Shown here: positions 5,809-19,256 of the stretch, one piece after another | How positions within the stretch are numbered: position 1 is the stretch's first letter | Layout of the letters: every line of letters begins with the position of its first letter | NCBI GenBank assembly: GCA_002368195.1 | Contig: AP018178.1 | Span: 5,273,286 to 5,337,285, forward strand | Direction: 5' to 3' | DNA length: 64,000 bases | From: Calothrix sp. NIES-2100 | Lineage (GTDB): Bacteria > Cyanobacteriota > Cyanobacteriia > Cyanobacteriales > Nostocaceae | Position numbers and translations under genes: made by a program | Notes under the pieces: model-generated | What the model was told of the DNA's origin: nothing | What the model saw: the letters and a program-made list of their open reading frames with translations, nothing else | The model's database searches: none

Positions 5809-6170
5809 AGTCCTGAGAACTTGGGCGTTAGGGACTTACAAAAAATAAATTACCCATATTCCGTAGTGCGAGCATCTTGCTCGATGAGTGAACACCACCT
5901 CGCGAGACGCTCGCACTACAAATTTATTGGGTATTTAAAAAAATACCCACGGGGGTAGGGGCACGGCATCGATAAAATATTGGTAATACCGAAAGTTGGA
6001 TAATTTATTTTTTGGAGTTCCCTTAAGCTATAAAAACTTGGGTGCTAGGCTGCTATTGCAGGGAATTTGCTATACTTTCGGAAAAATCTTAAATCCTCGG
6101 AATGTTTAATTTATCATAGATTCGTACATTTGTACTATTATTGGGTTTAGGAGGGCAATTAATAGAAGAT

Positions 6171-7043
6171 ATGGCTAGAGCAATCGAGCGAATTGATCGG
6201 GATATTGTATTGCTGAAAGAAGCGATAAAAGCGATCGCGGCAGAACTACAAAACGCTTATGCTATTTATTTCACTCTGTTAGGGCAAGCCGTTCGCCAGC
6301 AGTTGATTCTGGCAACCTATCACCTGTGTACCCAAGGTTATCCCGAAAAATTCCTGAGTTTGTCATTGAATCAACGGCAACATTTGCAACAAGCCATCCG
6401 CAAGTTGGGTAAACAGACAGCTGAACATTTGCTGACTATTATTAGTAGTGAGGAATCTCAGCATGAGGAAGATGAGGGGGATGAGGGGGATGAGGGGGAT
6501 GAGAGGGATGAGGGGGATAAGGGGGATGAGGGAGATGAGGAAGGTGAAAACAATTCTAAATCTCAAATTTCCAATTTAAAACTTACTGACTCTTCTAACC
6601 CAATGGAACTAGTAGCATGGCAACAGAGTGTAGAAAAGTTGACACAACATACACTCAAAAAACTGTCTCATGATGCTAATGCTGTGTTACAAAAAGTCAG
6701 TCTTTTACCCAAAAAGATCCCAGAACCGATTTTAGAAATAGCTGCGGCTGCATCAGAAGCATCTGCCGAAGTTATACCTGGGCCGCCTAACTTATTAAAC
6801 GTGGTCATTGAAATCGAAAATGAACAGGATGCGGAGGAACCTAGCCTGACAAAAGTTATGGCCATTAACCTCCGGCTAGGGGAAATTGAATTTGCTGATG
6901 CTAGACTCTCCTCGGCACGCAAACAGATTCGCAACACCCTACTTCAGTTAAATAAACTAGGACAAGATTATCAAAAAAAGCACCGAGAACGCTCAATTGC
7001 CGAAGCTGAAGCTGCTTGGCGTGCGATTTGGGATGATGATTAA
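6171..7043 (+). CDS. hypothetical protein with internal acidic (DEG)n repeat
   Basis: ORF track starts at TTG 6141; first ATG at 6171 (MARAIERID...); DEGDEGDEGDERDEGDKGDEGDEEGE encoded by a gatgaggggg tandem repeat. Confidence 0.5.
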   Translation: MARAIERIDRDIVLLKEAIKAIAAELQNAYAIYFTLLGQAVRQQLILATYHLCTQGYPEKFLSLSLNQRQHLQQAIRKLGKQTAEHLLTIISSEESQHEEDEGDEGDEGDERDEGDKGDEGDEEGENNSKSQISNLKLTDSSNPMELVAWQQSVEKLTQHTLKKLSHDANAVLQKVSLLPKKIPEPILEIAAAASEASAEVIPGPPNLLNVVIEIENEQDAEEPSLTKVMAINLRLGEIEFADARLSSARKQIRNTLLQLNKLGQDYQKKHRERSIAEAEAAWRAIWDDD

Positions 7044-7135: not shown

Positions 7136-9622
7136 ATGAGTGACAAACCAGATTGGATCAGATTGCAAAAAGCCTTGGCTGTAGAGGCGGAACACGGTTT
7201 TACAGATTTGATGGGTAGACAATATCGCTTTAGTGAATTTCTCAGCCTGACTCTGGGCAAATTCCCCATTGGTTTACCCGCAACTGAACGCCGTCGCTGG
7301 CAAGAATTAGCGATGCAATTTGCTAAATATTCAGATCTAGGTTTGGAAGAGAGACAACATTTAGTCGCAGACACTCGCAGGTATCTGTATCAATTACAGC
7401 AGGATGATGGGAAACCGCCAGAAAAAAATGGCGTAGTAGCGGAACCAGAGAGAAATTATCAATCTAAAAATCAAACTCCCACAACTCCGATTGTGCCTGA
7501 AGTGAGTCGGAGACTTGCACCAAAAATTGACCAAAAACTCAGCGATTTACCAGAAATCGGCATGAGAAAAGCTGATAATTTGGCGCGTCTGGGTTTGTAT
7601 ACTGTGCGTGACTTACTTTACTACTATCCCCGCGATCATATTGACTATGCGCGTCAGGTAAATATCCGCGAGTTGCAGGCGGGTGAGACGGTGACGATAG
7701 TCGCAACGGTGAAGCGCTGTAACTGTTTTAATAGTCCGAAAAATCAGAAACTTTCAATTTTAGAACTGATACTGAAGGATAACACCGGACAAATCAAAGT
7801 TAGTCGCTTTTCGGCGGGTACAAGGTTCACTAGTCGTGCTTGGCAAGAAAGTTTAAAACGCCGCTATCCTGTGGGTGCTGTGCTTGCGGCTTGTGGGTTG
7901 GTGAAGGAAAGTAAATTTGGCTTGACGCTGGATAACCCCGAATTAGAAGTATTGGCAAATCCGGGAGATGCGATTGATTCCTTGACAATCGGTCGGATAG
8001 TGCCAATTTATGCTTTAACTGAGGGTATCGCGGCGAATATGGTGCGACAGGCGGTAATAGCTGCTTTACCTGCGGCGGCGAATCTCAAAGACCCCTTACC
8101 CAGTGGTTTGCGGGAGAAATATGGTTTGATGGAATTGAAAGATGCGATCGCTAATATTCACTTTCCCCCAGATAGCGCCTCTCTGCAAGTTGCCCGTCGT
8201 CGCCTGGTTTTTGATGAATTTTTCTATTTGCAATTAAGTTTACTGCAACGACAGTATCAAGCAAGGCAAATCCAAACTAGCGCTATTCTGGCTCCCAAAG
8301 GACAGTTATTAGAAAATTTCTACGAAATACTGCCTTTTAAACTCACTGGCGCACAGCAGCGAGTAATTAACGATATTCTCAACGACTTACAACAACCTAC
8401 ACCGATGAATCGGTTGGTGCAAGGTGATGTAGGTTCCGGTAAAACTGTTGTGGCTGTGGTGGCTATTTTAGCGGCGATTCAATCAGGCTACCAAGCAGCG
8501 TTGATGGCTCCGACGGAAGTTTTAGCAGAACAGCATTACCGCAAGTTAGTCAGTTGGTTTAACTTGCTGCATTTACCAGTAGAATTACTGACAGGTTCGA
8601 CAAAAACTGTTAAACGGCGACAAATTCACGCTCAACTGGAAACGGGAGAGTTACCCCTGTTAGTGGGCACTCACGCCTTGATTCAAGACCCCGTAAACTT
8701 TCGCCAATTGGGGTTAGCGGTAATTGACGAACAACATCGGTTTGGGGTGCAACAAAGGGCGCGGTTGCAACAAAAAGGTGAACAACCCCATGTATTAACA
8801 ATGACCGCCACTCCCATTCCCCGGACATTGGCGCTGACGATACATGGGGATATGAATGTCAGTCAAATTGATGAGTTACCGCCAGGGAGACAAAAGATAC
8901 AGACTACAATGCTTACAGGTCAGCAACGTAGCCATGCTTACGACCTGATGCGGCGAGAAATTGCCCAAGGACGACAAGTTTATGTAATTTTGCCTTTGGT
9001 GGAAGAATCAGAAAAGTTAGATTTGCGTTCTGCTGTCGAAGAACACCAAAAATTACAGGAAAGCGTTTTTCCTGACTTTCAAGTTGGGTTGCTTCATGGT
9101 CGCATGAGTTCCGCCGAGAAAGACGAAGCAATTACGCAATTCCGGGATAACAAAACGCAAATTTTAGTTTCTACTACCGTTGTTGAAGTCGGTGTAGATG
9201 TCCCTAATGCTACAGTGATGCTCATTGAACATGCAGAACGGTTTGGTTTATCACAACTGCACCAACTGCGGGGACGGGTTGGGCGTGGTGCAGCGCAGTC
9301 CTATTGTTTGTTAATGAGTAGTTCTCGAAGTCCTGACGCGCAACAACGACTAAAAGTGATGGAACAGTCTCAGGATGGCTTTTTTATATCAGAAATGGAT
9401 ATGCGTTTTCGCGGCCCTGGGGAAGTGCTGGGAACTCGTCAATCTGGTGTGCCGGATTTTACACTTGCAAGTTTGCTGGAAGATGAGGAAGTTTTGCTGT
9501 TAGCGCGACAAGCAGCAGAGAAAGTCATCGAGATAGATGCAACTTTAGAGCGTTGGTATTTGATGAAAGAAGAGTTGAAGTATCGGTATGAGCGATTGAT
9601 GGGTGGGGCGATTATGACTTGA
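7136..9622 (+). CDS. recG: ATP-dependent DNA helicase RecG
   Basis: Walker A GDVGSGKT, DEQH box (VIDEQHRFG), helicase motifs TATPIPRT / QLRGRVGRG; ORF track begins at 7100 inside the CCCAATG repeat, so in-frame ATG at 7136 (MSDKPDW) preferred. Confidence 0.9.
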   Translation: MSDKPDWIRLQKALAVEAEHGFTDLMGRQYRFSEFLSLTLGKFPIGLPATERRRWQELAMQFAKYSDLGLEERQHLVADTRRYLYQLQQDDGKPPEKNGVVAEPERNYQSKNQTPTTPIVPEVSRRLAPKIDQKLSDLPEIGMRKADNLARLGLYTVRDLLYYYPRDHIDYARQVNIRELQAGETVTIVATVKRCNCFNSPKNQKLSILELILKDNTGQIKVSRFSAGTRFTSRAWQESLKRRYPVGAVLAACGLVKESKFGLTLDNPELEVLANPGDAIDSLTIGRIVPIYALTEGIAANMVRQAVIAALPAAANLKDPLPSGLREKYGLMELKDAIANIHFPPDSASLQVARRRLVFDEFFYLQLSLLQRQYQARQIQTSAILAPKGQLLENFYEILPFKLTGAQQRVINDILNDLQQPTPMNRLVQGDVGSGKTVVAVVAILAAIQSGYQAALMAPTEVLAEQHYRKLVSWFNLLHLPVELLTGSTKTVKRRQIHAQLETGELPLLVGTHALIQDPVNFRQLGLAVIDEQHRFGVQQRARLQQKGEQPHVLTMTATPIPRTLALTIHGDMNVSQIDELPPGRQKIQTTMLTGQQRSHAYDLMRREIAQGRQVYVILPLVEESEKLDLRSAVEEHQKLQESVFPDFQVGLLHGRMSSAEKDEAITQFRDNKTQILVSTTVVEVGVDVPNATVMLIEHAERFGLSQLHQLRGRVGRGAAQSYCLLMSSSRSPDAQQRLKVMEQSQDGFFISEMDMRFRGPGEVLGTRQSGVPDFTLASLLEDEEVLLLARQAAEKVIEIDATLERWYLMKEELKYRYERLMGGAIMT

Positions 9623-9720
9623 TTGCTCAGTGCTAGAGTACCGATTCAGTATTGACAACTTTGACGAATAATTACGAATTGTTAATAGAGTCATAAGTAG
9701 TCGGACAGAATTAATTACAC

Positions 9721-9830
9721 AATTTCATTGCGAGCGTTTGCGTAGCGTCTCGTTGGCGCAGCTTCTCCTAGAGAAGAGAAGCAATCGCAAGGGCTGGGAT
9801 TGCTTCTCTCCGCTCGCAATGACTGTAATT
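9721..9830. repeat. dispersed ~100-nt structured repeat, copy 1 (nested inverted repeats)
   Basis: cattgcgagcgtttgcgtagcgtctcg...gagaagagaagcaatc...gattgcttctctccgctcgcaatg; related copies at ~36340-36440 and ~58680-58760. Confidence 0.5.
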
Positions 9831-10033
9831 ATTTTTGTCCATCTACTTACTTACTACGATCTCCTTTGATTTGTCTATATAAACCTATCGACAACTGGGA
9901 ATAATAAACTTGCTTTCCTAAAACTAGGGTTGGTGGATTTGCTGCGTTTTATACTGAGAGTCTTTACTCTAAGCGTCAGTTAAATGCATCACCTCTGAGC
10001 TTCAGTTTATTTCCAAAAGATGAGGTTTGCTCT

Positions 10034-10681
10034 ATGAGTCAGATGAGTAGAGACGATGTTCGTGAACGGCTGGGTAATATCGATCAGATCCGCGATATTA
10101 TTTTTGGAACGCAACTAAGAGAGTACGACAATCGATTCAGCAAGCTGGAGTCGGATATTTCGCTGTTGCAACAACAAATGCGATCGCATGTAGAGCAACT
10201 GAAGTTAAACTTTTCGGCTGAACTCAAGGCGGGGATTGAGGCGCTAGAAAAAAAACTGAAGTCACTCAACCAGACAACTCAAGAAGAAACTTTTGACTTA
10301 CGCCAACAGGTTGATCGTCTGAATAAAAAATTCTCTACCAGTGTTCAGTCGCTTGATGAGGCGTTAGATAGTCAAACTACTTCGATTCGCGATGAAGTTT
10401 TTCAGACTAAAGTCCAATTACAAGACGATGTGACGGCGTTACGAGATCTGATTTTGGAAGAATTAGATCGACGTTTCTCCCAGTTGACAGACACTAAAGT
10501 TTCTAAAGACGATATGGCGGAAACTTTGTTTGCTTTGGGAATGCGACTTAAGGAAACTGAATTTATTCCCAAACTGCGGGAAGCAGCCGATGAACGCGGC
10601 GATAACTATACTGCTGTCACGTTTCTAGAAACTACAAAAGTGTTAACTCACTCCAATGGTGCGACTGAATTACATTCTTAA
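10034..10681 (+). CDS. coiled-coil protein, first gene of GTPase/kinase operon
   Basis: 215 aa, heptad-like Leu/Gln/Glu-rich sequence throughout; ATG start. Confidence 0.55.
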   Translation: MSQMSRDDVRERLGNIDQIRDIIFGTQLREYDNRFSKLESDISLLQQQMRSHVEQLKLNFSAELKAGIEALEKKLKSLNQTTQEETFDLRQQVDRLNKKFSTSVQSLDEALDSQTTSIRDEVFQTKVQLQDDVTALRDLILEELDRRFSQLTDTKVSKDDMAETLFALGMRLKETEFIPKLREAADERGDNYTAVTFLETTKVLTHSNGATELHS

Positions 10682-10737
10682 TCAACAAGACAAACTTTGA
10701 CATTATACTTTGACAATCGATAGCGATACTTACTGAT

Positions 10738-12936
10738 ATGACTCAGGTGAAAAATTCGATTTCCCAATCTTTTGAGTTAAAGCCAGAAGAAACTGCACAG
10801 ATTGAAAATCTAGTAAATCTACTCGTCGATCTCAAAATTATCGAACCACCTGAGCAATCTTTTCCTGAATTAGCATCAGAAAATAATCATCAGGAGTATA
10901 TTTTAGAAGAAACTGGATTACTGCGACTCCCTCCAGTTCCATTGGAAGTATGTGAAGCTTATTTAGAATCTGCTGTTGATTCTCCTTTTTGTTTACCTAA
11001 TTCATCGCCAGTTACCGATGATAAATTAGAAGAACCTCTGGAAATTATTGCCACCTTTGAGGAAAAATTAGTTGAATCTAATTTAGATAATTCACAGGAT
11101 GCATTTCAAAAATTACAAGCGATATTAGTCGGAGGCGAATTAGCAGATTTAAACGATTTGACGGCTAAACTCGCACAAAAACTCACAAATTTAGAGCATC
11201 AAATTTACGATCCTCAAGAGCTAATCAACTTACTACTCCCGTCGATTTCTGAGCTTTTAAGGCTGAAAATTACGGAATCGAAAGAGGAAATTGCACAGGT
11301 ATTTACTCCGATTATCGATCAGGCTATCCGCAGTCGTACTGAACAAGATAAAATTAGCATGAGTGAAGCATTAGCTCCTGCTGTTCCTCTAGCTATTTCC
11401 CACCAGATCATTGTTGCGCCTGAAGAAGTTTCCGATGCGATCGCACCTTCAATGGGACGAGCAATAAAAAAGCAGATTGAAATTGAACAAAATATCGTTG
11501 TGGATGCACTCTACCCAATTATTGGTAGTACCATAGCCAAATATATGGCAGAGACAATTAGTGCTATTAACCGACAAGTTGAAGAAACCCTCAGTGTCGA
11601 AGGGATTAAACGGAAAATTCGTGCCAAATTACAAGGAGTTTCCGAAGCAGAATTAATTTTCAAAGAATCTCTGACATTTAAAATCAAAGCTATTTTTTTG
11701 ATTCATAAAGAATCTGGTTTAGTCATCTCAGATATTCAGCAATCTGATGCACAGCAACTAGAGTCAGAAATGGTAGCAGGAATGCTGACGGCGATTCGCA
11801 GTTTTGCTAATGATTGCATCAACCAATCTGGTAGCATATCAGAACTAGACGCGATTGACTATGGTACGTCGAAAATAATTTTAGAAGTTGCAGGATATTG
11901 TTATTTAGCGATTGTTGTTCAGGGAGAGCCAAGCAAAAAATTCATCCTTGCTATGCGGCAAAATCTCGGCAATATAGTGCAACAATATGGTGATTTAATT
12001 GAAAAATTTGACGGCGTTCCCGATACAATTCCGAATGAAATCCATAGTCTTTTAGAAGTACTGAAAGATTCAGATTCGCAGGAGAAAAAGAAAAAAAGTC
12101 AACCTTCACCACTATTGGTATTAAGCTTAACATTGCTCGGCATTATTTTCATTCCTTGGGGGTTTTGGCAATACCATATCGGAATAATTCGTTCGATTGA
12201 AAATAAAACTTCCCTGGCTTTAGCTTCTACTCCAGAGTTAGCTGTCTATCGTCTAACAGTGCAAGTAGAACATAACAAATTAAAATTAACTGGACAAGTA
12301 CCTAATCAACTTTTGCGTCAGAAAGCTGAACAAATAGTCAAAATAACCTCACCTAAATGGTTGATTGACAATCAAATTTTATCAGTAGAAGTCCCTGCCG
12401 ATCCTATATTAGCTGCGGCTGAAGTTAAACGAGTCACCGCAGTTTTAAATCAGATGGACGGTACAGCAATTTCTGCTCAATATATCGCTAGTAAAGTAGC
12501 TATCGAGGGTACTGTCAACCGGATTACAGATGCTCACACTATTACTCATGCATTTGAGCAAATTCCCGGTGTAAAGTTTGTATCTAGCGCCGTGCGGGTG
12601 CAACCTTTGCAGATTGAAGTTAGATTTTACTTTCAAATCGACTCAGCAAATTTGAGGATAACAGATTTAGGGTACAAGGTTCAACAAGTTAAGTTGTTCC
12701 TCAATCAGCATCCAAACAAACAGGTTAAAATCGTTGGTTATAGCTATGAGCATACTAATGTGAATCCAAGTCAACAGTTAGCCTTAAAGCGAGCAAAAGC
12801 TGTACAACAAGCACTAATTAATCAAGGCGTTAACCCATCTCGTCTACACATTATCGGAAAAACAAATTTACCGCCAGGAATTGATGCTACTCAACCCTCA
12901 TGGTTAAGCAGATGTGTCATTATAGAAGCTATTTAA
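10738..12936 (+). CDS. multidomain membrane protein: Roadblock/LC7-like domain, one TM helix, BON-like and OmpA-like C-terminal domains
   Basis: aa ~315-425 (AIFLIHKESGLVISD...MVAGMLTAIRSF...ILEVAGYCYLAIVVQGE...) fits Roadblock/MglB alpha-beta pattern; TM PLLVLSLTLLGIIFIPWGFW; C-term VKIVGYSYEHTNVNPSQQLALKRAKAVQQALINQG resembles OmpA/MotB C-domain. Confidence 0.55.
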   Translation: MTQVKNSISQSFELKPEETAQIENLVNLLVDLKIIEPPEQSFPELASENNHQEYILEETGLLRLPPVPLEVCEAYLESAVDSPFCLPNSSPVTDDKLEEPLEIIATFEEKLVESNLDNSQDAFQKLQAILVGGELADLNDLTAKLAQKLTNLEHQIYDPQELINLLLPSISELLRLKITESKEEIAQVFTPIIDQAIRSRTEQDKISMSEALAPAVPLAISHQIIVAPEEVSDAIAPSMGRAIKKQIEIEQNIVVDALYPIIGSTIAKYMAETISAINRQVEETLSVEGIKRKIRAKLQGVSEAELIFKESLTFKIKAIFLIHKESGLVISDIQQSDAQQLESEMVAGMLTAIRSFANDCINQSGSISELDAIDYGTSKIILEVAGYCYLAIVVQGEPSKKFILAMRQNLGNIVQQYGDLIEKFDGVPDTIPNEIHSLLEVLKDSDSQEKKKKSQPSPLLVLSLTLLGIIFIPWGFWQYHIGIIRSIENKTSLALASTPELAVYRLTVQVEHNKLKLTGQVPNQLLRQKAEQIVKITSPKWLIDNQILSVEVPADPILAAAEVKRVTAVLNQMDGTAISAQYIASKVAIEGTVNRITDAHTITHAFEQIPGVKFVSSAVRVQPLQIEVRFYFQIDSANLRITDLGYKVQQVKLFLNQHPNKQVKIVGYSYEHTNVNPSQQLALKRAKAVQQALINQGVNPSRLHIIGKTNLPPGIDATQPSWLSRCVIIEAI

Positions 12937-12947
12937 AGTAAAATTTC

Positions 12948-13472
12948 ATGTCTATCATCTCTAGAAAAATCTGTTTATTTGGTGATTTTGGTGTTGGCAA
13001 AACTAGCCTAATTCGCCAATTTGTAGAACGGCAATTTAATGATAAATATCTTTCAACTGTTGGAGTAAAAATTTCTAAAAAATTGGTTGAATTGTCACCA
13101 ACAGACTTACAGCAGGCACAAAAAATACAGTTTTTAATTTGGGATATTGAAGGTAGTAATAAATTTAAAGCAATTGCTCCTAATTATTTTCAAGGCGCTA
13201 AAGCTGCTGTAATAGTTGGTGATGTAACACAACCAGAAACCCTGAATCATCTCCAGGAACATATCCACAGTTTTTTAGCTGTTAATCCTCAAAGTTATAT
13301 TGCGATCGCTTTGAATAAATCGGACTTGATTGCAGCAGAATATTTAGAAAATCTCCAACGCATTTATCAATTTAGCGACCAGACTAATGTCATAGCTACC
13401 TATACAACTTCCGCGAAAACTGGTAATAATGTTGATGAAATATTTCACATATTAGCTACTCATTTAATTTAA
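12948..13472 (+). CDS. Ras-like small GTPase (MglA/Rup-like) with non-canonical switch II
   Basis: G1 GDFGVGKTS, G3 WDIEGS (canonical DxxGQ with Gln replaced by Ser), G4 LNKSD, G5 SAK; 11-nt gap after upstream gene. Confidence 0.8.
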   Translation: MSIISRKICLFGDFGVGKTSLIRQFVERQFNDKYLSTVGVKISKKLVELSPTDLQQAQKIQFLIWDIEGSNKFKAIAPNYFQGAKAAVIVGDVTQPETLNHLQEHIHSFLAVNPQSYIAIALNKSDLIAAEYLENLQRIYQFSDQTNVIATYTTSAKTGNNVDEIFHILATHLI

Positions 13473-13476
13473 TAAA

Positions 13477-15804
13477 ATGGAATCATTATTGACAAATCTG
13501 TTGTCTATATATCGGATTGAATATCTGACGATTGATGAAAACTTCCAGATTCTGGAGACTTCTCCGGGAATTAATCGTCTGAGCGATATTTATGAAGAAG
13601 TGCAGCTAGGTGAGGATATTCGGATTGTATTTCCGGAAATAGAGGGACTTGAAGATATTTTTGATGCGATTCGACAGGGTGAACAAAATAACTTTGAATT
13701 AAAAGGAATTAGGCGATCGCCAGATACAGCTTCTCCTTTATATATTAATATAAATATTACTAAAGTAGAAAATTATAGCAATAAGATCATAATTTTTGTG
13801 GAAGATGTGACAGAACGAATGGTTCTGGAGCAATCTTTATTTCAGGGTGCAAATGAAGCAAATCTTTTGCTACGTAATAACAAAGCTGCTAAACAATATA
13901 TTGACCAGATTTTGACATCAATGGCGGATGGTTTGTTGGTCACAACGCTTTCAGGAAATATTAAAAAAATCAACCCAGCCGCCAAAATTTTATTAGAATA
14001 TGACGAATCAGAACTTATCGGTCAACCTATCAGCAAAATTTTTCGAGAAGTGGATAGATGTAAGTTAGCAATCGGCGAAATCGAAAGTATCGTTACAACC
14101 CAAAATCCAGAAATTCCTCTACTGAAAGAAGTAGAAACTATTTGTCAAACCAAAAGCGGTAAAACAATTCCGATAGCTGTTTCATACTCAATAGTTCAGA
14201 CAGAAGTTGAACATTTCCAAGGTTATGTTTATATTTTGCGAGACATGACCGAACGAAAGCAAGCAGAACTGGCTAAACAAGAATTTTTAGCGATGATTAG
14301 CCATGAAGTTCGGACTCCGATCGCATCGGTAATTGGGATGGCGAGTTTGTTGCTGAATACTGGATTAACTACTGAGCAACGTGACTTTGTGGAAACCATC
14401 TACACTAGTGGAAATGCTTTACTAGAAATTATTAACGATTTCCTTGACCTCTCGAAAATAGAATCAGGTAAGCTGGAATTAGAAGAACAACCTTTTGCTT
14501 TGCGAACTTGCATTAATGAAGCGCTTTCTCTACTTGCGCCCAAAGCGAGAGAAAAAAAATTAAAACTCACATTTTTAGATACTCCAGAACTTCCAACGAC
14601 AATTGTGGGTGATATCACCAGACTGCGCCAAGTCTTGATTAATTTACTCAGTAATGCTTTAAAATTTACCGAAACTGGAAGTATAGAAGTTTCCGTCATA
14701 AATCGCCAGCTTCACGATACTACAGAGGAAATTCAGTTTACTGTTAAAGATACAGGCATTGGCATTCCCCGCGATCGCCTGGAGCGTTTATTTAAAGCTT
14801 TTATTCAAGTCAACTCCTCCATTACTCGACAGTACGGCGGTACGGGGTTAGGTCTTGCTATCTGCAAGCAACTGTGTGAGTTAATGGGTGGTAGAATTTG
14901 GGTAGAAAGTGAACCAGGTATAGGCAGTAAATTTCACTTCACAATTACTGTAACTGTGATTCCAGAAGAAGTTAGGAGTCGGGAGTCAGGAGTTAATGAT
15001 GCGCAGATTGATACTCATCTAGCCGAACAATATCCATTGAGGATACTTTTAGCTGAAGATAATGCCATTAATCAAAAGATGATTGGGTTGATGTTGCAAG
15101 GAATGGGTTATCAGCCAGATATTGCTAACAATGGTTTAGAAGTAATCTCAGCGCTACGCCGCCAACGCTACGATGTAGTATTGATGGATGTACAAATGCC
15201 AGAAATGGACGGTTTAACAGCAAGCCAGCATATCTGTCAAGAATGGACACCACAAAACCGCCCGCGACTGATCGCATTAACAGCAAGTGCAATGTGGGGC
15301 GATCGCGAAAATTGTCTAGCAGCTGGGATGGATGACTATCTTGCTAAACCAATCCGGATTGCAGAATTGATGCGAGTACTCAAAAGATGTCAGCCTCTCT
15401 CTGCGGTGGAGAAACCGATAGAGAACCAAGCAAAAGTTTCCCATCCAATTGATTCTACTGCCTTAGAAAACATCAGGGGCATGGCAGAGTTTAATACAGA
15501 GGTTGAGTTTAAAGAATTTGTGCGGGAAATTATTAATGACTACCTTGAAGATGCTCCTAAAATACTACAAAATATGCGAGTAGCATTAAGTCAAGGTAAT
15601 TTCAAAAATCTCAGGCTAGCAACGCATACCCTTTACTCTACCAGTGCTACCCTAGGCGCAATGACTCTAGCAAGCCACTGTGCAGAATTAGAAATTGTAG
15701 CCGCAGTTGAAGAACTGGAAAAAGCAACAGCAGGAATTTTAATGATCGAAACTGAATACCAAAATGTTGAAATTGCTTTACAACAAGAAAGGCAAAAACT
15801 CTGA
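13477..15804 (+). CDS. hybrid sensor histidine kinase/response regulator with C-terminal Hpt domain
   Basis: PAS region, HisKA H-box (ISHEVRTPIAS), HATPase_c N/G1/G2 boxes (NLLSNALKFT, DTGIGI, GGTGLGLAICK), REC with phospho-acceptor Asp (VLMDVQMPEMDG), Hpt-like C-terminus (ATHTLYSTSATLGA); starts 4 nt after GTPase stop. Confidence 0.9.
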   Translation: MESLLTNLLSIYRIEYLTIDENFQILETSPGINRLSDIYEEVQLGEDIRIVFPEIEGLEDIFDAIRQGEQNNFELKGIRRSPDTASPLYININITKVENYSNKIIIFVEDVTERMVLEQSLFQGANEANLLLRNNKAAKQYIDQILTSMADGLLVTTLSGNIKKINPAAKILLEYDESELIGQPISKIFREVDRCKLAIGEIESIVTTQNPEIPLLKEVETICQTKSGKTIPIAVSYSIVQTEVEHFQGYVYILRDMTERKQAELAKQEFLAMISHEVRTPIASVIGMASLLLNTGLTTEQRDFVETIYTSGNALLEIINDFLDLSKIESGKLELEEQPFALRTCINEALSLLAPKAREKKLKLTFLDTPELPTTIVGDITRLRQVLINLLSNALKFTETGSIEVSVINRQLHDTTEEIQFTVKDTGIGIPRDRLERLFKAFIQVNSSITRQYGGTGLGLAICKQLCELMGGRIWVESEPGIGSKFHFTITVTVIPEEVRSRESGVNDAQIDTHLAEQYPLRILLAEDNAINQKMIGLMLQGMGYQPDIANNGLEVISALRRQRYDVVLMDVQMPEMDGLTASQHICQEWTPQNRPRLIALTASAMWGDRENCLAAGMDDYLAKPIRIAELMRVLKRCQPLSAVEKPIENQAKVSHPIDSTALENIRGMAEFNTEVEFKEFVREIINDYLEDAPKILQNMRVALSQGNFKNLRLATHTLYSTSATLGAMTLASHCAELEIVAAVEELEKATAGILMIETEYQNVEIALQQERQKL

Positions 15805-15805
15805 T

Positions 15806-16930
15806 TTAACTTAATTGACGGCGGAATTGGTTGATGCTGATGGATAAGAGTAATGTAGCAAAGATAAAAAGTGCGATCGCATTCCACCAAAGTACTTCTA
15901 ATCCTACACCTTTGAGCAAAATTCCCCGCACAATCTCTATATAATGGCGTAGCGGGTCTAGTAGAGACAAATATTTAAAGAATTCCGGCATACTTTCAAT
16001 GGGAGAGATAGCCCCAGAAAGTTGAATCAAGGGTAAATTGATAAAAAATGATGTCAGCACAACTTGCTGTTGAGTGCGACAAACCGTAGCCAGCATAATG
16101 CCAATGCCAATACCAACAAATAAATAAAGTCCTGATAGGGTTAAAAAAAGTAAAGCATTGCCGCGAAAAGGGACACCAAATACTAATCTACCGATACTTA
16201 AAGCTAAAATCACATCACCCATTAACAGCACAAATAAAGGCACAATTTTAGCGAGTAAAATTTCCCAAGCTTCCGCTGGAGTCATTAACAATTGTTCGAG
16301 AGTTCCTGTATCTTTTTCTCTGACAACTGTTACTGAAGAAACCAAAGAACTAATCAGCGTTAAAACTAAGCCTAAAACGCCGGGGATGAAAAACCAACTA
16401 CTGCGTAATCCCGGATTATAAAGGAAAGTCGTTTGCGGATTAATTAACGGCGGGGCTTGATTAGAGGATAAGCGGCGACTAAATTGATTAATCATCTGAT
16501 TGAGGTAACCTTGAGCAATACCCGCAGTATTGGCATCGACTGCATCAATTAAAATTTGTACTTCACCAGATTTATCTTCTGATAATTTACGTTTAAAATC
16601 TGGCGGAATGATTAAACCTGCTGTGATTTTTCCTTGTCGAACTTGCTCACCTAAATCTTGATCGTTAAACAGATATTTTTCTAAGGTAAAGACTTTATTG
16701 ACCGTTAATACAGAAACTAATTCTCTACTTTCATAACTATTGGCATAATCGACAACTCCTAACTTGAGATAATGGACATCAGGATTGAGAGCAAAGCCAT
16801 AAAGCAGCATTTGCACTGTGGGAGGGATGATTAACAAGACTAAAGTCTCTCGACTGCGCAGTATTTGGCGAAATTCCTTAATTGCTAAAGTCCAGAATCG
16901 GCTATTCAACAGACTTTGAATAAATTTCAT
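15806..16930 (-). CDS. ABC-2 type transporter permease
   Basis: 374 aa; large N-terminal extracytoplasmic region followed by ~6 TM helices, typical of YhhJ/YadH-like ABC-2 permeases; convergent with kinase gene. Confidence 0.7.
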   Translation of the reverse strand: MKFIQSLLNSRFWTLAIKEFRQILRSRETLVLLIIPPTVQMLLYGFALNPDVHYLKLGVVDYANSYESRELVSVLTVNKVFTLEKYLFNDQDLGEQVRQGKITAGLIIPPDFKRKLSEDKSGEVQILIDAVDANTAGIAQGYLNQMINQFSRRLSSNQAPPLINPQTTFLYNPGLRSSWFFIPGVLGLVLTLISSLVSSVTVVREKDTGTLEQLLMTPAEAWEILLAKIVPLFVLLMGDVILALSIGRLVFGVPFRGNALLFLTLSGLYLFVGIGIGIMLATVCRTQQQVVLTSFFINLPLIQLSGAISPIESMPEFFKYLSLLDPLRHYIEIVRGILLKGVGLEVLWWNAIALFIFATLLLSISINQFRRQLS

Positions 16931-17204: not shown

Positions 17205-19256
17205 TCATCCCAAACCGAATAACTTAGAAATTAGCGGCAATAATTTATTTCCAGCTTCCACCAGTGAAGCCACAGCAGGTAAACCTGTAAATATTCCCTT
17301 TAACATGGTGATTGCAGTCTTTGCAGTCTTCTTACTTCCATTCTCTTGGGGATTTTTCGCGGCTTCTGCTAAAGTTTGCACCTGTTCTAAAGCCTCAGCT
17401 TTGTCCTCATCTGATAACTCTGATGATTGGGAAATTTCTTCTTGCAATTGCGTCAACAATTCTTTGATTCCGGGTTTCTCTGCTGACGGTGCATCGGGTA
17501 ACTGATTGAGCGCAACACTCACATTACCGCTAATCGTTCCCAGGTTGGCGACAGCGGCAGAACCACCGCCAGCAATACCGCTAACATTTGTACTACCTTG
17601 AATATTGATGCCGCTGATATCAGACACTTTGTTATCTCCTTGTATATAGTATTTCGACTGCTGAAGTGCAGTTGTCAGCATATTTTCTAAACTAAGAATA
17701 CGACTATCTTTTTCTATAAGTAGGGCTTGCTGACTTTGGGATAAAGCCTTGAGTTGATTATAGTCATCGAAATATTCGGCACTCAGTTGGGATTTATCAC
17801 TCCCTGGTGCGGTTTTAGCTCTAAGTAAGAATTTATCATCGCCGCGTTTCTCCATTGCCACAATTTCTAACTCGGCTTCTGGGTGATTTTCTGCCAGCTT
17901 TTTGAATGCAATTGCAATGGCGCGGGGGTCAACGTTTTGATTGTGGTAAAGGTCAAGGGTGTCAAAAATTGGCTTGATAAAGTCGGCAAAGTCGCCTTCT
18001 TGGAAGACTTCTTGTTGATTATCTGGTTTGCGGAGGGGGTCGGGGTTTTCTTTGGTGGGTAAGCGCATGAAGATATATTCACACCTCACTCCATGCAATT
18101 TAGTTTCACTGGTAATGCCCCAATCTTCAATGAATGCACCTGTGAGGGTTGCACCTGTTAAATCGGTTGCGTCTAGTTGGGTTTGCTTGAGTTTGGCTCT
18201 GGATAAATCCGCATCTTGCAAATTAGCTTCACTGAGGTCAGCGCTGATGAAGCTAGCATCGGCTAGGTTTGCTGATTGTAAGTTTATACCTCGCAGGATT
18301 TGACGGTCAAAGTTTTTGTCCTGTCCTTGTCCTGTAATTAGTAATTCGCGGATTTGTGGGTGTTGCAGGTAAGTTGAGCCAGGGCGAACGCGGTCAAGCA
18401 TTTTGGCTTGATGCCAACGGGTATTAGTCAGGATAGTTTTGTGGAAATCTGTACTTTTGAGTGTGGCTTTGGTGAAATCAGCCTGAGTTAAAGTAGTGCC
18501 ATGAAAACTTGTTCCGCCTGTGGCTGCAAAGTTGACAGCAATATTACGAACCAAGGAATATTTTTCGTCTCCTTTCATTGCTCGCCAAGCGATGTAGATA
18601 CTAAATAATGTTCCAGAAAAGGCGATGGCGAAGGCGTAGGCTCCAGCAAAGGCTCCGTTAACGGAGGCTGCGGAGGCTGCGTAGGCTCCGACGAAAGCTC
18701 CGGCAATAACTTCGGCTCCAGAGACTGCGAAAGCAACGGCGATGGCGTAGGCTCCAGCAAAGGCTCCGGCTCCGGAAACTGCGAAGGCGAAGGCAAAGAC
18801 GAAACCAAATATTCCAGTGAAGGCTCCGGAGGCTGTAAAGGCAAAGGCGAAGGCGACAGCGACAGCAACAGATCCTAAACTAGCTGCTATTCCTTGGCGA
18901 ATTGTAGTTAAGAAAAAGACAATCAATACGATTAAAGCAGTCCAGCCGACGATCCAATTCTCCGTACTATCTCCAAATATAAATGAGACTAAGTAACCGT
19001 TGATAGCCCATAAAAATACAGACACCCCTGACAATAACGAGGAAATAAGCAATAGAAAAATTGCCCAACGACGTTGCAGTCCCGCTTTAGCATGGCTAAA
19101 GTTTGCACCTGTTAAATTAGCATTGGTGAAATTTGCCCCTCGGATGTCGGCATAGCTAAAGTTTGCGCCTGCAAGGTCTTGTCCTTTGAAGTTGCGTCCT
19201 CGGAGATTTTGCCCAGAAAAGTCTAACGCCATGTTCCACTGCGCGAAGATGAGCAA
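17205..19256 (-). CDS. large pentapeptide-repeat membrane protein
   Basis: 683 aa; N-terminal and central pentapeptide repeats (NLRGRNFKGQDLAGANFSYADIRGANF...), Ala/Phe/Gly-rich low-complexity TM block (AFAFAFTASGAFTGIFGFVFAFAFAVSGAGAFAGAYA), coiled-coil C-terminal domain. Confidence 0.8.
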   Translation of the reverse strand: MLIFAQWNMALDFSGQNLRGRNFKGQDLAGANFSYADIRGANFTNANLTGANFSHAKAGLQRRWAIFLLLISSLLSGVSVFLWAINGYLVSFIFGDSTENWIVGWTALIVLIVFFLTTIRQGIAASLGSVAVAVAFAFAFTASGAFTGIFGFVFAFAFAVSGAGAFAGAYAIAVAFAVSGAEVIAGAFVGAYAASAASVNGAFAGAYAFAIAFSGTLFSIYIAWRAMKGDEKYSLVRNIAVNFAATGGTSFHGTTLTQADFTKATLKSTDFHKTILTNTRWHQAKMLDRVRPGSTYLQHPQIRELLITGQGQDKNFDRQILRGINLQSANLADASFISADLSEANLQDADLSRAKLKQTQLDATDLTGATLTGAFIEDWGITSETKLHGVRCEYIFMRLPTKENPDPLRKPDNQQEVFQEGDFADFIKPIFDTLDLYHNQNVDPRAIAIAFKKLAENHPEAELEIVAMEKRGDDKFLLRAKTAPGSDKSQLSAEYFDDYNQLKALSQSQQALLIEKDSRILSLENMLTTALQQSKYYIQGDNKVSDISGINIQGSTNVSGIAGGGSAAVANLGTISGNVSVALNQLPDAPSAEKPGIKELLTQLQEEISQSSELSDEDKAEALEQVQTLAEAAKNPQENGSKKTAKTAITMLKGIFTGLPAVASLVEAGNKLLPLISKLFGLG

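Follow-up and report, generated by a model that had tools for sequence, protein, structure and literature searches.

What kind of signalling system is encoded where the gene of a small Ras-like GTPase stands between those of a membrane protein and a hybrid histidine kinase? We examined such a locus in Calothrix sp. NIES-2100, within a stretch of 64,000 nt (GenBank assembly GCA_002368195.1, contig AP018178.1, positions 5,273,286 to 5,337,285 of the forward strand) that we refer to as the window; positions given below are those of the window. The membrane protein and the GTPase each have a database entry from this genome with 100% identity. The locus consists of four open reading frames (ORFs) on the plus strand, encoding the protein DUFY (ORF1), a membrane protein of 732 residues (ORF2), the GTPase (ORF3) and the kinase (ORF4), with gaps of 56, 11 and 4 nt between them. 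The original prediction for this DNA had described four co-directional genes with gaps of 4-56 nt, as the ORF coordinates confirm, and had interpreted them as an MglA/MglB-type module. Our analysis leads to a different assignment. The locus is very probably a cyanobacterial Group 1 Rup cassette, comprising four predicted co-transcribed genes and having a hybrid kinase with an Hpt domain as its output.

The assignment starts from the GTPase. According to Pfam, the protein matches the Ras family (E 1.5e-28), and its nearest solved relatives are Rab22A, Rab14 and Rab5 (best PDB E 3e-25). It carries G1 as GDFGVGKT (residues 12-19), the G2 Thr as T37 in the sequence YLSTVG, where Ser precedes it, G3 as WDIEGS (65-70), G4 as NKSD (123-126) and G5 as SAK (155-157). 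Because WDIEGS aligns with WDTAGQ of Rab22A and Rab14, Ser70 holds the position of the catalytic Gln. In addition, Phe14 occupies the position of Ras Gly12 and Glu68 that of Ras Ala59. The GTPase therefore has the intact motifs and the switch II devoid of the catalytic Gln that had been predicted for it. Changes at the Gln61, Gly12 and Ala59 positions of Ras cripple hydrolysis. The protein has no C-terminal Cys, and therefore no lipid anchor is expected.

We compared the GTPase with its homologues in two sets of loci. A genome scan with the GTPase, using one genome per species, yielded 62 cyanobacterial loci and one Asgard outlier (32% identity). The second set, 80 metagenome loci, was retrieved with the longin-like segment of the membrane protein (described below) as the sole seed; 50 of them had at least 2.5 kb of downstream sequence. 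The Gln position was occupied by Ser in 57 and by His in five of the 62 cyanobacterial genome copies; in the metagenome copies (∼55), Ser occurred 27 times, His 25 times, Asn twice and Gln once. The choice between Ser and His split by clade. Genome and metagenome copies shared the signature GD[FY]GVGKT plus WDxEG[SH], in which the P-loop aromatic residue and the G3 Glu were near-invariant; all five G motifs were strictly retained, down to the Asp and Gly of G3 and the Thr of switch I. These data bear on whether the GTPase cycles at all. In one explanation, it would bind nucleotide but hydrolyse GTP slowly or not at all, acting as an adaptor (a stable scaffold in the GTP-bound state, or a nucleotide sensor) that needs no GTPase-activating protein (GAP). 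The missing cis Gln might suggest this, as might two features of nearly all copies, the aromatic residue at the Gly12 position and the Glu at that of Ala59. We nevertheless consider this explanation improbable: strict retention of the five G motifs is what would be expected of a conformation responsive to the gamma-phosphate, and the His or Ser at the Gln position is conserved within clades.

Prokaryotic small GTPases split into the MglA family and the Rup family (Wuichet & Søgaard-Andersen, Genome Biol Evol 2015; PMC4316618). Members of the MglA family are coupled to Robl_LC7 genes and have TVPGQ (Group 1) or GTPGQ (Groups 2-5) as G3, and Group 1 MglA proteins possess an intrinsic Arg adjoining the G2 Thr (PMC4316618). 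By contrast, the Group 1 Rup GTPases are devoid of the G3 Gln, and their genes occur in a conserved neighbourhood of three more genes, encoding a coiled-coil cytoplasmic protein, a protein with a conserved unknown domain that usually also has an inner-membrane helix and OmpA, and an output protein, either GGDEF/EAL or a histidine kinase, whose N-terminal region contains an invariant Gln (PMC4316618). Table S2 of that study lists the arrangement 'DUFY>DUFX:OmpA>Rup>' in Anabaena variabilis, Nostoc punctiforme, Cyanothece and Acaryochloris. According to its authors, no Rup member had been characterised as of 2015, and Rup GTPases were not predicted to work with MglB-like proteins (PMC4316618).

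The window cassette has the same four components in the same order. More specifically, it encodes a GTPase with Ras-type G1-G5 and no G3 Gln, DUFY, which corresponds to the coiled-coil cytoplasmic protein, a DUFX:OmpA protein and a signalling output with a conserved N-terminal Gln. Membership of the MglA family was rejected, as neither a TVPGQ or GTPGQ G3, an Arg by the G2 Thr nor coupling to Robl_LC7 was found. The published table has no 'Calothrix' entry and the window locus is absent from it. Because the GTPases of the listed Nostoc and Anabaena Rup systems have 165-166 residues and that of the window has 174, the window cassette may be a paralogous copy relative to the listed ones. The architecture, proposed originally as uncharacterised in cyanobacteria, has thus been described, cyanobacteria included (PMC4316618), and the claim holds only in the experimental sense: in the literature searched, we found no experimental work on a Group 1 Rup cassette, and no paper on the Nostoc punctiforme and Anabaena variabilis copies by locus tag. 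Our analysis differs from the published description in two respects. In the latter, DUFX is given no fold and the outputs are GGDEF/EAL proteins or kinases, whereas here DUFX has a predicted longin/Roadblock-type domain and the outputs also include class III nucleotide cyclases and tandem output pairs.

The gene order was conserved throughout the genome set. DUFY, DUFX:OmpA, the GTPase and the output gene occurred in this order in all 62 cyanobacterial loci, which span Nostocales and Oscillatoriales-type genomes; one contig stops before the output gene. In none of the 62 were the flanking recG and ABC-2 genes of the window found. In the metagenome loci, the GTPase gene lay immediately after the gene with the longin-like segment in 42 of 50. 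The expectation that the genes form a conserved neighbourhood was thereby substantiated, and this conservation of order supports the view that the four would make up one functional unit. DUFY precedes the membrane protein gene in every one of the 62 loci and, with 82% mean identity to its window copy, shows the strongest conservation among the four proteins. It has no hydrophobic helix in a Kyte-Doolittle scan, and its matches in Pfam, NCBIfam and PADLOC were all weak, sub-threshold and of coiled-coil type. An anti-phage defence system was tried as a reading of the cassette and rejected, since PADLOC gave only weak matches (E 1e-4 to 1e-3), such as a ZorA coiled-coil stretch, which we regard as coiled-coil noise.

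One locus, on a 5.9-kb contig binned as 'uncultured Acetobacteraceae' (L024; CAZZZY010000410.1), contains a Nostoc-type cassette whose GTPase is 74% identical to the window copy. It is probably a binning error in a lichen metagenome.

The membrane protein has a single hydrophobic helix, at residues ∼457-478 and immediately preceded by KKKK, which is the sole segment to exceed 1.6 in the Kyte-Doolittle scan across all four proteins. Beyond the helix, Pfam identified BON in two stretches (E 2.8e-10; best, residues 493-546) and OmpA (E 1.1e-10), the latter with PDB matches to Pal and OmpA, and NCBIfam gave a weak match to ArfA_OmpATb_N at residues 506-608. The transmembrane helix and the BON/OmpA domains anticipated in this protein were therefore both recovered. 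As the lone helix is preceded by KKKK and followed by BON and OmpA, residues 1-455 are assigned to the cytoplasm and the BON/OmpA part to the periplasm. The cytoplasmic half, comprising a repeat region and a longin-like domain, is conserved equally to the periplasmic half, and the whole protein has more than 900 relatives at E ≤ 0.001. In the five repeats, position 4 is Pro in five of five and the hydrophobic spacing is regular; the region is 78% conserved. Weak matches of the Pfam Apolipoprotein type were obtained over the repeats and in one relative. The repeats resemble the proline-punctuated amphipathic helices of apolipoproteins and may line the inner face of the membrane.

The segment between the repeats and the transmembrane helix was originally described as Roadblock/LC7-like. 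Sequence searches did not detect that family. Pfam Robl_LC7 (PF03259) matched neither this protein nor the other three at E ≤ 1, an NCBIfam scan of the protein found no Roadblock domain, and Pfam scans of its relatives found no Robl_LC7 (E ≤ 0.01 or stricter). A 31-sequence profile of the segment, compared with all PDB sequences, retrieved no Roadblock protein and nothing significant, the top match being TolR (E 0.086). We then considered its predicted structure. An AlphaFold2 model of residues 290-450, built from a 33-sequence alignment, had a predicted local distance difference test score (pLDDT) of 75 and a predicted template modelling score of 0.70. After a low-confidence N-terminal helix, the modelled chain (residues ∼315-449) follows the order beta-beta-alpha-beta-beta-beta-alpha-alpha, which is that of the longin fold. 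Foldseek against the PDB returned a mixture of longin and Roadblock proteins (E ∼1e-4 to 1e-3). Longin matches were longer and better than Roadblock matches. The segment is thus predicted to be a Roadblock/longin-class sandwich with longin topology, by resemblance of fold and not by demonstrated homology. With respect to the original description, the model and Foldseek support the class of fold; the family does not stand, as PF03259 gave no match and longin fits better.

The longin-like domain ends ∼8 residues ahead of the KKKK and transmembrane segment. Two motifs mark it, GMLTAIRSF in helix 1, with a near-invariant Arg at residue 354, and EVAGYCY in a strand; at 75% conservation, it is among the best kept parts of the protein. 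The segment alone retrieved 2,952 clusters at 50% identity; the representative-library search with it listed relatives at identities of at least 46%. We found no report of a longin-type fold for DUFX in the literature searched, and this predicted fold is an addition made here.

These results bear directly on the interpretation of the locus as a polarity or motility switch, in which a Roadblock domain would act as an MglB-like GAP that repositions catalytic residues and the switch would be fused to two-component signalling. In Myxococcus and Thermus, as in the window, a small Ras-superfamily GTPase is encoded beside a Roadblock/longin-class protein. However, MglB positions the Gln and Arg of MglA itself, and the Rup/Rab-like GTPase of the window has neither, its G3 being WDIEGS and no Arg preceding T37; its nearest solved relatives are Rabs. 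The partner protein also differs, in that it is membrane-anchored, fails the Robl_LC7 hidden Markov model and is closer to longin, its longin matches being the longer and better ones. Finally, the link to motility or polarity found no support, as the neighbouring genes are not conserved and no motility genes are conserved nearby. We give an MglA/MglB-type switch hardly any credence.

The authors of the 2015 study had already drawn an analogy between Group 1 Rup systems and the actinobacterial conservon (CvnA-D / Mfp) (PMC4316618). The conservon differs in that its GTPase belongs to the MglA family (GTPGQ), CvnB is a Robl_LC7 protein and CvnC a DUF742 protein; DUF742 had no Pfam match in the four window proteins. 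Moreover, the conservon kinase is membrane-bound and serves as input, whereas the window kinase is a soluble protein placed downstream, with the longin-like protein providing the membrane element.

The kinase has 775 residues, and its PAS, HisKA, HATPase_c, Response_reg and Hpt domains all pass the Pfam thresholds. The phosphorelay residues H276, D571 and H717 are all present, and no transmembrane helix was found in a Kyte-Doolittle scan, consistent with a soluble protein. The Pfam domains agree with the proposal of a PAS-HisKA-HATPase-REC-Hpt kinase (REC, receiver domain) that connects the GTPase unit to a phosphorelay. Pfam confirmed Hpt in the window kinase and in five genome-locus orthologues. 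The REC-Hpt portion is kept in the Nostocales orthologues scanned and is missing from Oscillatoriales-type versions.

Ahead of its canonical PAS domain, the kinase has an N-terminal module of ∼135 residues, hereafter the N-module, whose PAS-like first ∼110 residues the original prediction had not set apart. It matched Pfam PAS_10 weakly, and its AlphaFold2 model was of low confidence (9-sequence alignment, pLDDT 65); a homologue search with the N-module returned only eight short fragments. In the metagenome loci, the N-module opens the gene after the GTPase in 43 of the 44 with enough sequence, and it is common to hybrid histidine kinases, histidine kinases, class III cyclases and GGDEF proteins. 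The outputs at these loci comprised REC-containing hybrid kinases (13), plain kinases (nine), class III nucleotide cyclases (10), confirmed GGDEF diguanylate cyclases (three) and a multi-PAS kinase of 2,160 residues (one). In 105 unique copies of the N-module, D47, F52-P53-E54, G57, E59, F73, R80, Y89, T112, Q119, Q123 and E127 were at least 95% conserved. The sharing of this module by such different enzymes constitutes the strongest new evidence that the GTPase unit may act on the output enzyme, and that it may do so via the N-module.

Three kinds of output, plain kinases, PAS-GAF class III adenylate/guanylate cyclases and GGDEF proteins, are encoded at Oscillatoriales-type and metagenome loci (L057, 8554-12213; L061, 8915-10903; L084; L135; L142). 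Some loci have two outputs in tandem, such as a kinase followed by a cyclase in L057, each of which starts with the N-module. In a Cyanomargarita calcarea metagenome-assembled genome (L041, 8530-10989), three in-frame stops interrupt the kinase gene within the region that aligns full-length with that of the window; either the gene is a pseudogene or the assembly is in error.

The N-module is also the basis of a hypothesis of Wuichet and Søgaard-Andersen, who had already noted the invariant Gln in 2015 (PMC4316618): the N-terminal region of the output would be a GAP that gives the Gln in trans, and the membrane protein would be an anchor, a guanine nucleotide exchange factor or a sensor. Our alignment offers two candidate residues, Q119 (Gln in 101 of 105 unique N-modules) and Q123 (103 of 105), near-invariant across the four output types; together with E127, at a spacing of i, i+4 and i+8, they line one side of the post-PAS helix. 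TBC GAPs and RapGAP are precedents for a Gln or Asn provided in trans. However, Q119 and Q123 lie within the long helix after 'DVTER', the usual coiled-coil signal-transmitting linker of PAS sensors, and their conservation may therefore reflect signal transmission and not catalysis. The model of the N-module is, moreover, the low-confidence one described above, and neither Q119 nor Q123 is certain to be the Gln in the published figure. We consider the hypothesis rather unlikely; given the position in the linker helix, a trans-Gln role of these residues is conceivable but not favoured.

Overall, these data are probably best explained by a Group 1 Rup cassette that uses its longin-like domain as a platform for the GTPase. 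The following mechanism is a tentative drawing of how such a cassette might work. In the periplasm, the BON/OmpA part would sense the state of the envelope or be anchored to it. Close to the membrane, the longin-like domain would recruit the soluble, lipid-free GTPase, set its nucleotide state, or both, which is how longin and Roadblock platforms serve GTPases of the Rab, Rag, Arf-like and MglA types. The GTP-bound GTPase would then engage the PAS-like N-module of the output enzyme and switch its activity. In the window, this would lead to phosphotransfer from His276 to Asp571 to His717 and then to a response regulator encoded outside the cassette; elsewhere, the same front end would drive a plain kinase, a class III nucleotide cyclase or a GGDEF diguanylate cyclase. 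With no cis Gln and with an aromatic side chain at the Ras Gly12 position, the GTPase would probably depend on a partner for residues needed to hydrolyse GTP, an argument that builds on what is established for Rap/RapGAP and for Gln61 and Gly12 of Ras. As in the Rap/RapGAP and Rab/TBC-GAP pairs, the window GTPase is without a usable cis Gln, implying catalytic residues in trans; unlike in those pairs, no RapGAP or TBC domain is encoded in the cassette according to Pfam.

It is possible, albeit doubtful, that DUFX represents a genuine longin-type platform in bacteria, one that directly contacts a Rab-like GTPase at the cytoplasmic membrane and controls it, with a PAS adaptor to the output of each lineage. 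The modelled domain differs from eukaryotic and Asgard longin platforms (Sec22b, TRAPP, Mon1-Ccz1, AP sigma, FLCN/NPRL2 and the SR-alpha SRX domain with SR-beta) in having no detectable sequence homology to them and in being part of a bacterial single-pass protein with periplasmic BON/OmpA domains.

Several points weigh against the longin-platform explanation. The longin call rests on one AlphaFold2 model of moderate confidence (pLDDT 75), which was obtained from a shallow alignment of close relatives. There was no significant sequence link to longin or Roadblock proteins, Pfam providing none and the best such PDB match being TRAPP Bet5 (E 0.56-1.1). The putative envelope signal is guessed from the names of the BON and OmpA domains, and the proposed mechanism gives DUFY, the most conserved protein, no role. 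Finally, eight of the 50 metagenome loci encode a paralogue of 1,170-1,200 residues that has the same longin-transmembrane-BON-OmpA end, with neither GTPase nor DUFY nearby. The longin-like domain can therefore occur without an adjacent GTPase, which is a caveat on obligate coupling.

This orphan paralogue, an addition made here, has a long N-terminal extension (loci L110, L119, L122, L125, L126, L128, L130 and L134). In the two loci whose flanks were examined, it is accompanied by the housekeeping genes birA (L119 and L128) and pdxA (L119). Its solitary occurrence between pdxA and birA lends some weight to the idea that the BON/OmpA protein of the cassette is an envelope structural protein, merely co-expressed with the GTPase-kinase pair and having no direct contact with it. 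Against this idea stand the adjacency of the genes in all 62 genome loci and in 42 of the 50 metagenome loci, its persistence with several output types and with flanks that are not conserved, the equal conservation of the cytoplasmic and periplasmic halves, and a predicted fold known for binding small GTPases. We judge mere co-expression to be very improbable, and retain the longin-platform explanation.

Features of the cassette and its leader in the window. Residue numbers refer to the encoded protein; conservation and E values are as obtained in the analysis.
Feature	Position	Strand	Basis
Conserved leader, probably promoter and 5' untranslated region	9891-10033	+	blastn, alignment blocks
DUFY (ORF1), soluble coiled-coil protein, 215 residues	10034-10681	+	ORF; weak coiled-coil-type matches
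DUFX:BON:OmpA (ORF2), single-pass membrane protein, 732 residues, N terminus cytoplasmic	10738-12936	+	ORF, transmembrane helix, Pfam
Five tandem 23-residue proline-punctuated repeats, residues 165-279, cytoplasmic	11230-11574	+	In-register printout
Predicted longin-like alpha-beta sandwich, residues ∼315-449	11680-12084	+	AlphaFold2 model
Transmembrane helix, residues ∼457-478	12106-12171	+	Kyte-Doolittle scan
Periplasmic BON region, two matched stretches	12214-12567	+	Pfam BON
Periplasmic OmpA-like peptidoglycan-binding domain	12628-12867	+	Pfam OmpA, residues 631-710
Rup-type (Rab-like) small GTPase (ORF3), 174 residues	12948-13472	+	Pfam Ras, PDB matches, motifs
Hybrid histidine kinase (ORF4), 775 residues	13477-15804	+	ORF; Pfam domains
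N-module: divergent PAS core (residues ∼1-110, ends 'DVTER') and helix with Q119, Q123, E127	13477-13881	+	
Second, canonical PAS domain	13900-14253	+	Pfam PAS_9 E 1.1e-17, residues 151-259
HisKA and HATPase_c core, H276	14272-14949	+	Pfam; 77% conserved
Receiver domain, D571	15043-15381	+	Pfam Response_reg E 6.1e-24
Hpt domain, H717	15526-15732	+	Pfam Hpt E 4.4e-11

Upstream of the cassette lies recG. The ∼140 nt before the DUFY ATG form a leader that is conserved in many Nostocales loci, with 70-78% nucleotide identity over ∼138 nt according to blastn. In the leader alignment, a GGGAATAATA block located ∼125 nt ahead of the ATG is invariant, and the leader also carries a GAGG Shine-Dalgarno-like motif. 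It is probably the conserved promoter and 5' untranslated region of the cassette. RNAalifold gave no convincing support for a conserved RNA fold in it (-6.8 kcal/mol, covariation term -0.5), and Rfam had no match over 9500-16100. A promoter and terminator scan of the region gave a result not above chance, and no terminator-like site was found on the plus strand within the four-gene cluster. Downstream of the cassette, in convergent orientation, lies the gene of an ABC-2 permease (15806-16930, minus strand). One base separates its stop codon from that of the kinase (15804-15806), which leaves no space for a terminator between the two genes.

The intergenic region between recG and DUFY also contains a nested inverted repeat of 156 nt (9694-9849), whose fold is a single long hairpin (-77.3 kcal/mol, z = -10.8 versus shuffles). 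Because other Nostoc loci (L032, L038, L053 and L005) contain parts of this repeat at unrelated positions, it looks like a dispersed repeat of the miniature inverted-repeat transposable element type and not part of the operon. Two more genes of the window are not conserved beside the cassette: one (6141-7043) encodes a protein of 300 residues with an acidic low-complexity EDEGDEGDEGDE stretch, and the other (17205-19256, minus strand) a pentapeptide-repeat membrane protein of 683 residues.

The window cassette is a further member of an experimentally uncharacterised system whose architecture was already published, cyanobacteria included, and it carries little weight as a new architecture for that reason. 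What the present analysis adds, from sequence comparison, is the delineation of a putative PAS adaptor module apparently used by four output classes, class III cyclases among them. The predicted longin fold sits uneasily with the 2015 statement on Roadblock-class partners of Rup GTPases. If DUFX were indeed a longin-type platform, that statement, according to which Rup GTPases have no such partners (PMC4316618), would be overturned. The cassette would then be a prokaryotic counterpart of eukaryotic longin-GTPase pairs, such as SR-alpha/SR-beta, TRAPP and Mon1-Ccz1, and would pass an envelope signal through one dedicated PAS adaptor to a phosphorelay, to cyclic AMP or cyclic GMP, or to cyclic di-GMP. 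It would also provide a bacterial model for the origin of longin control over Rab-like switches. Rup GTPases are prokaryotic relatives of eukaryotic Ras and Rab, and the cassette is widespread; in the literature searched, we found no Rup GTPase characterised since the family was defined in 2015. The predicted longin platform, the shared PAS adaptor and the GTPase signature, predictions as they still are, make the function of a bacterial Rab-like GTPase more testable.

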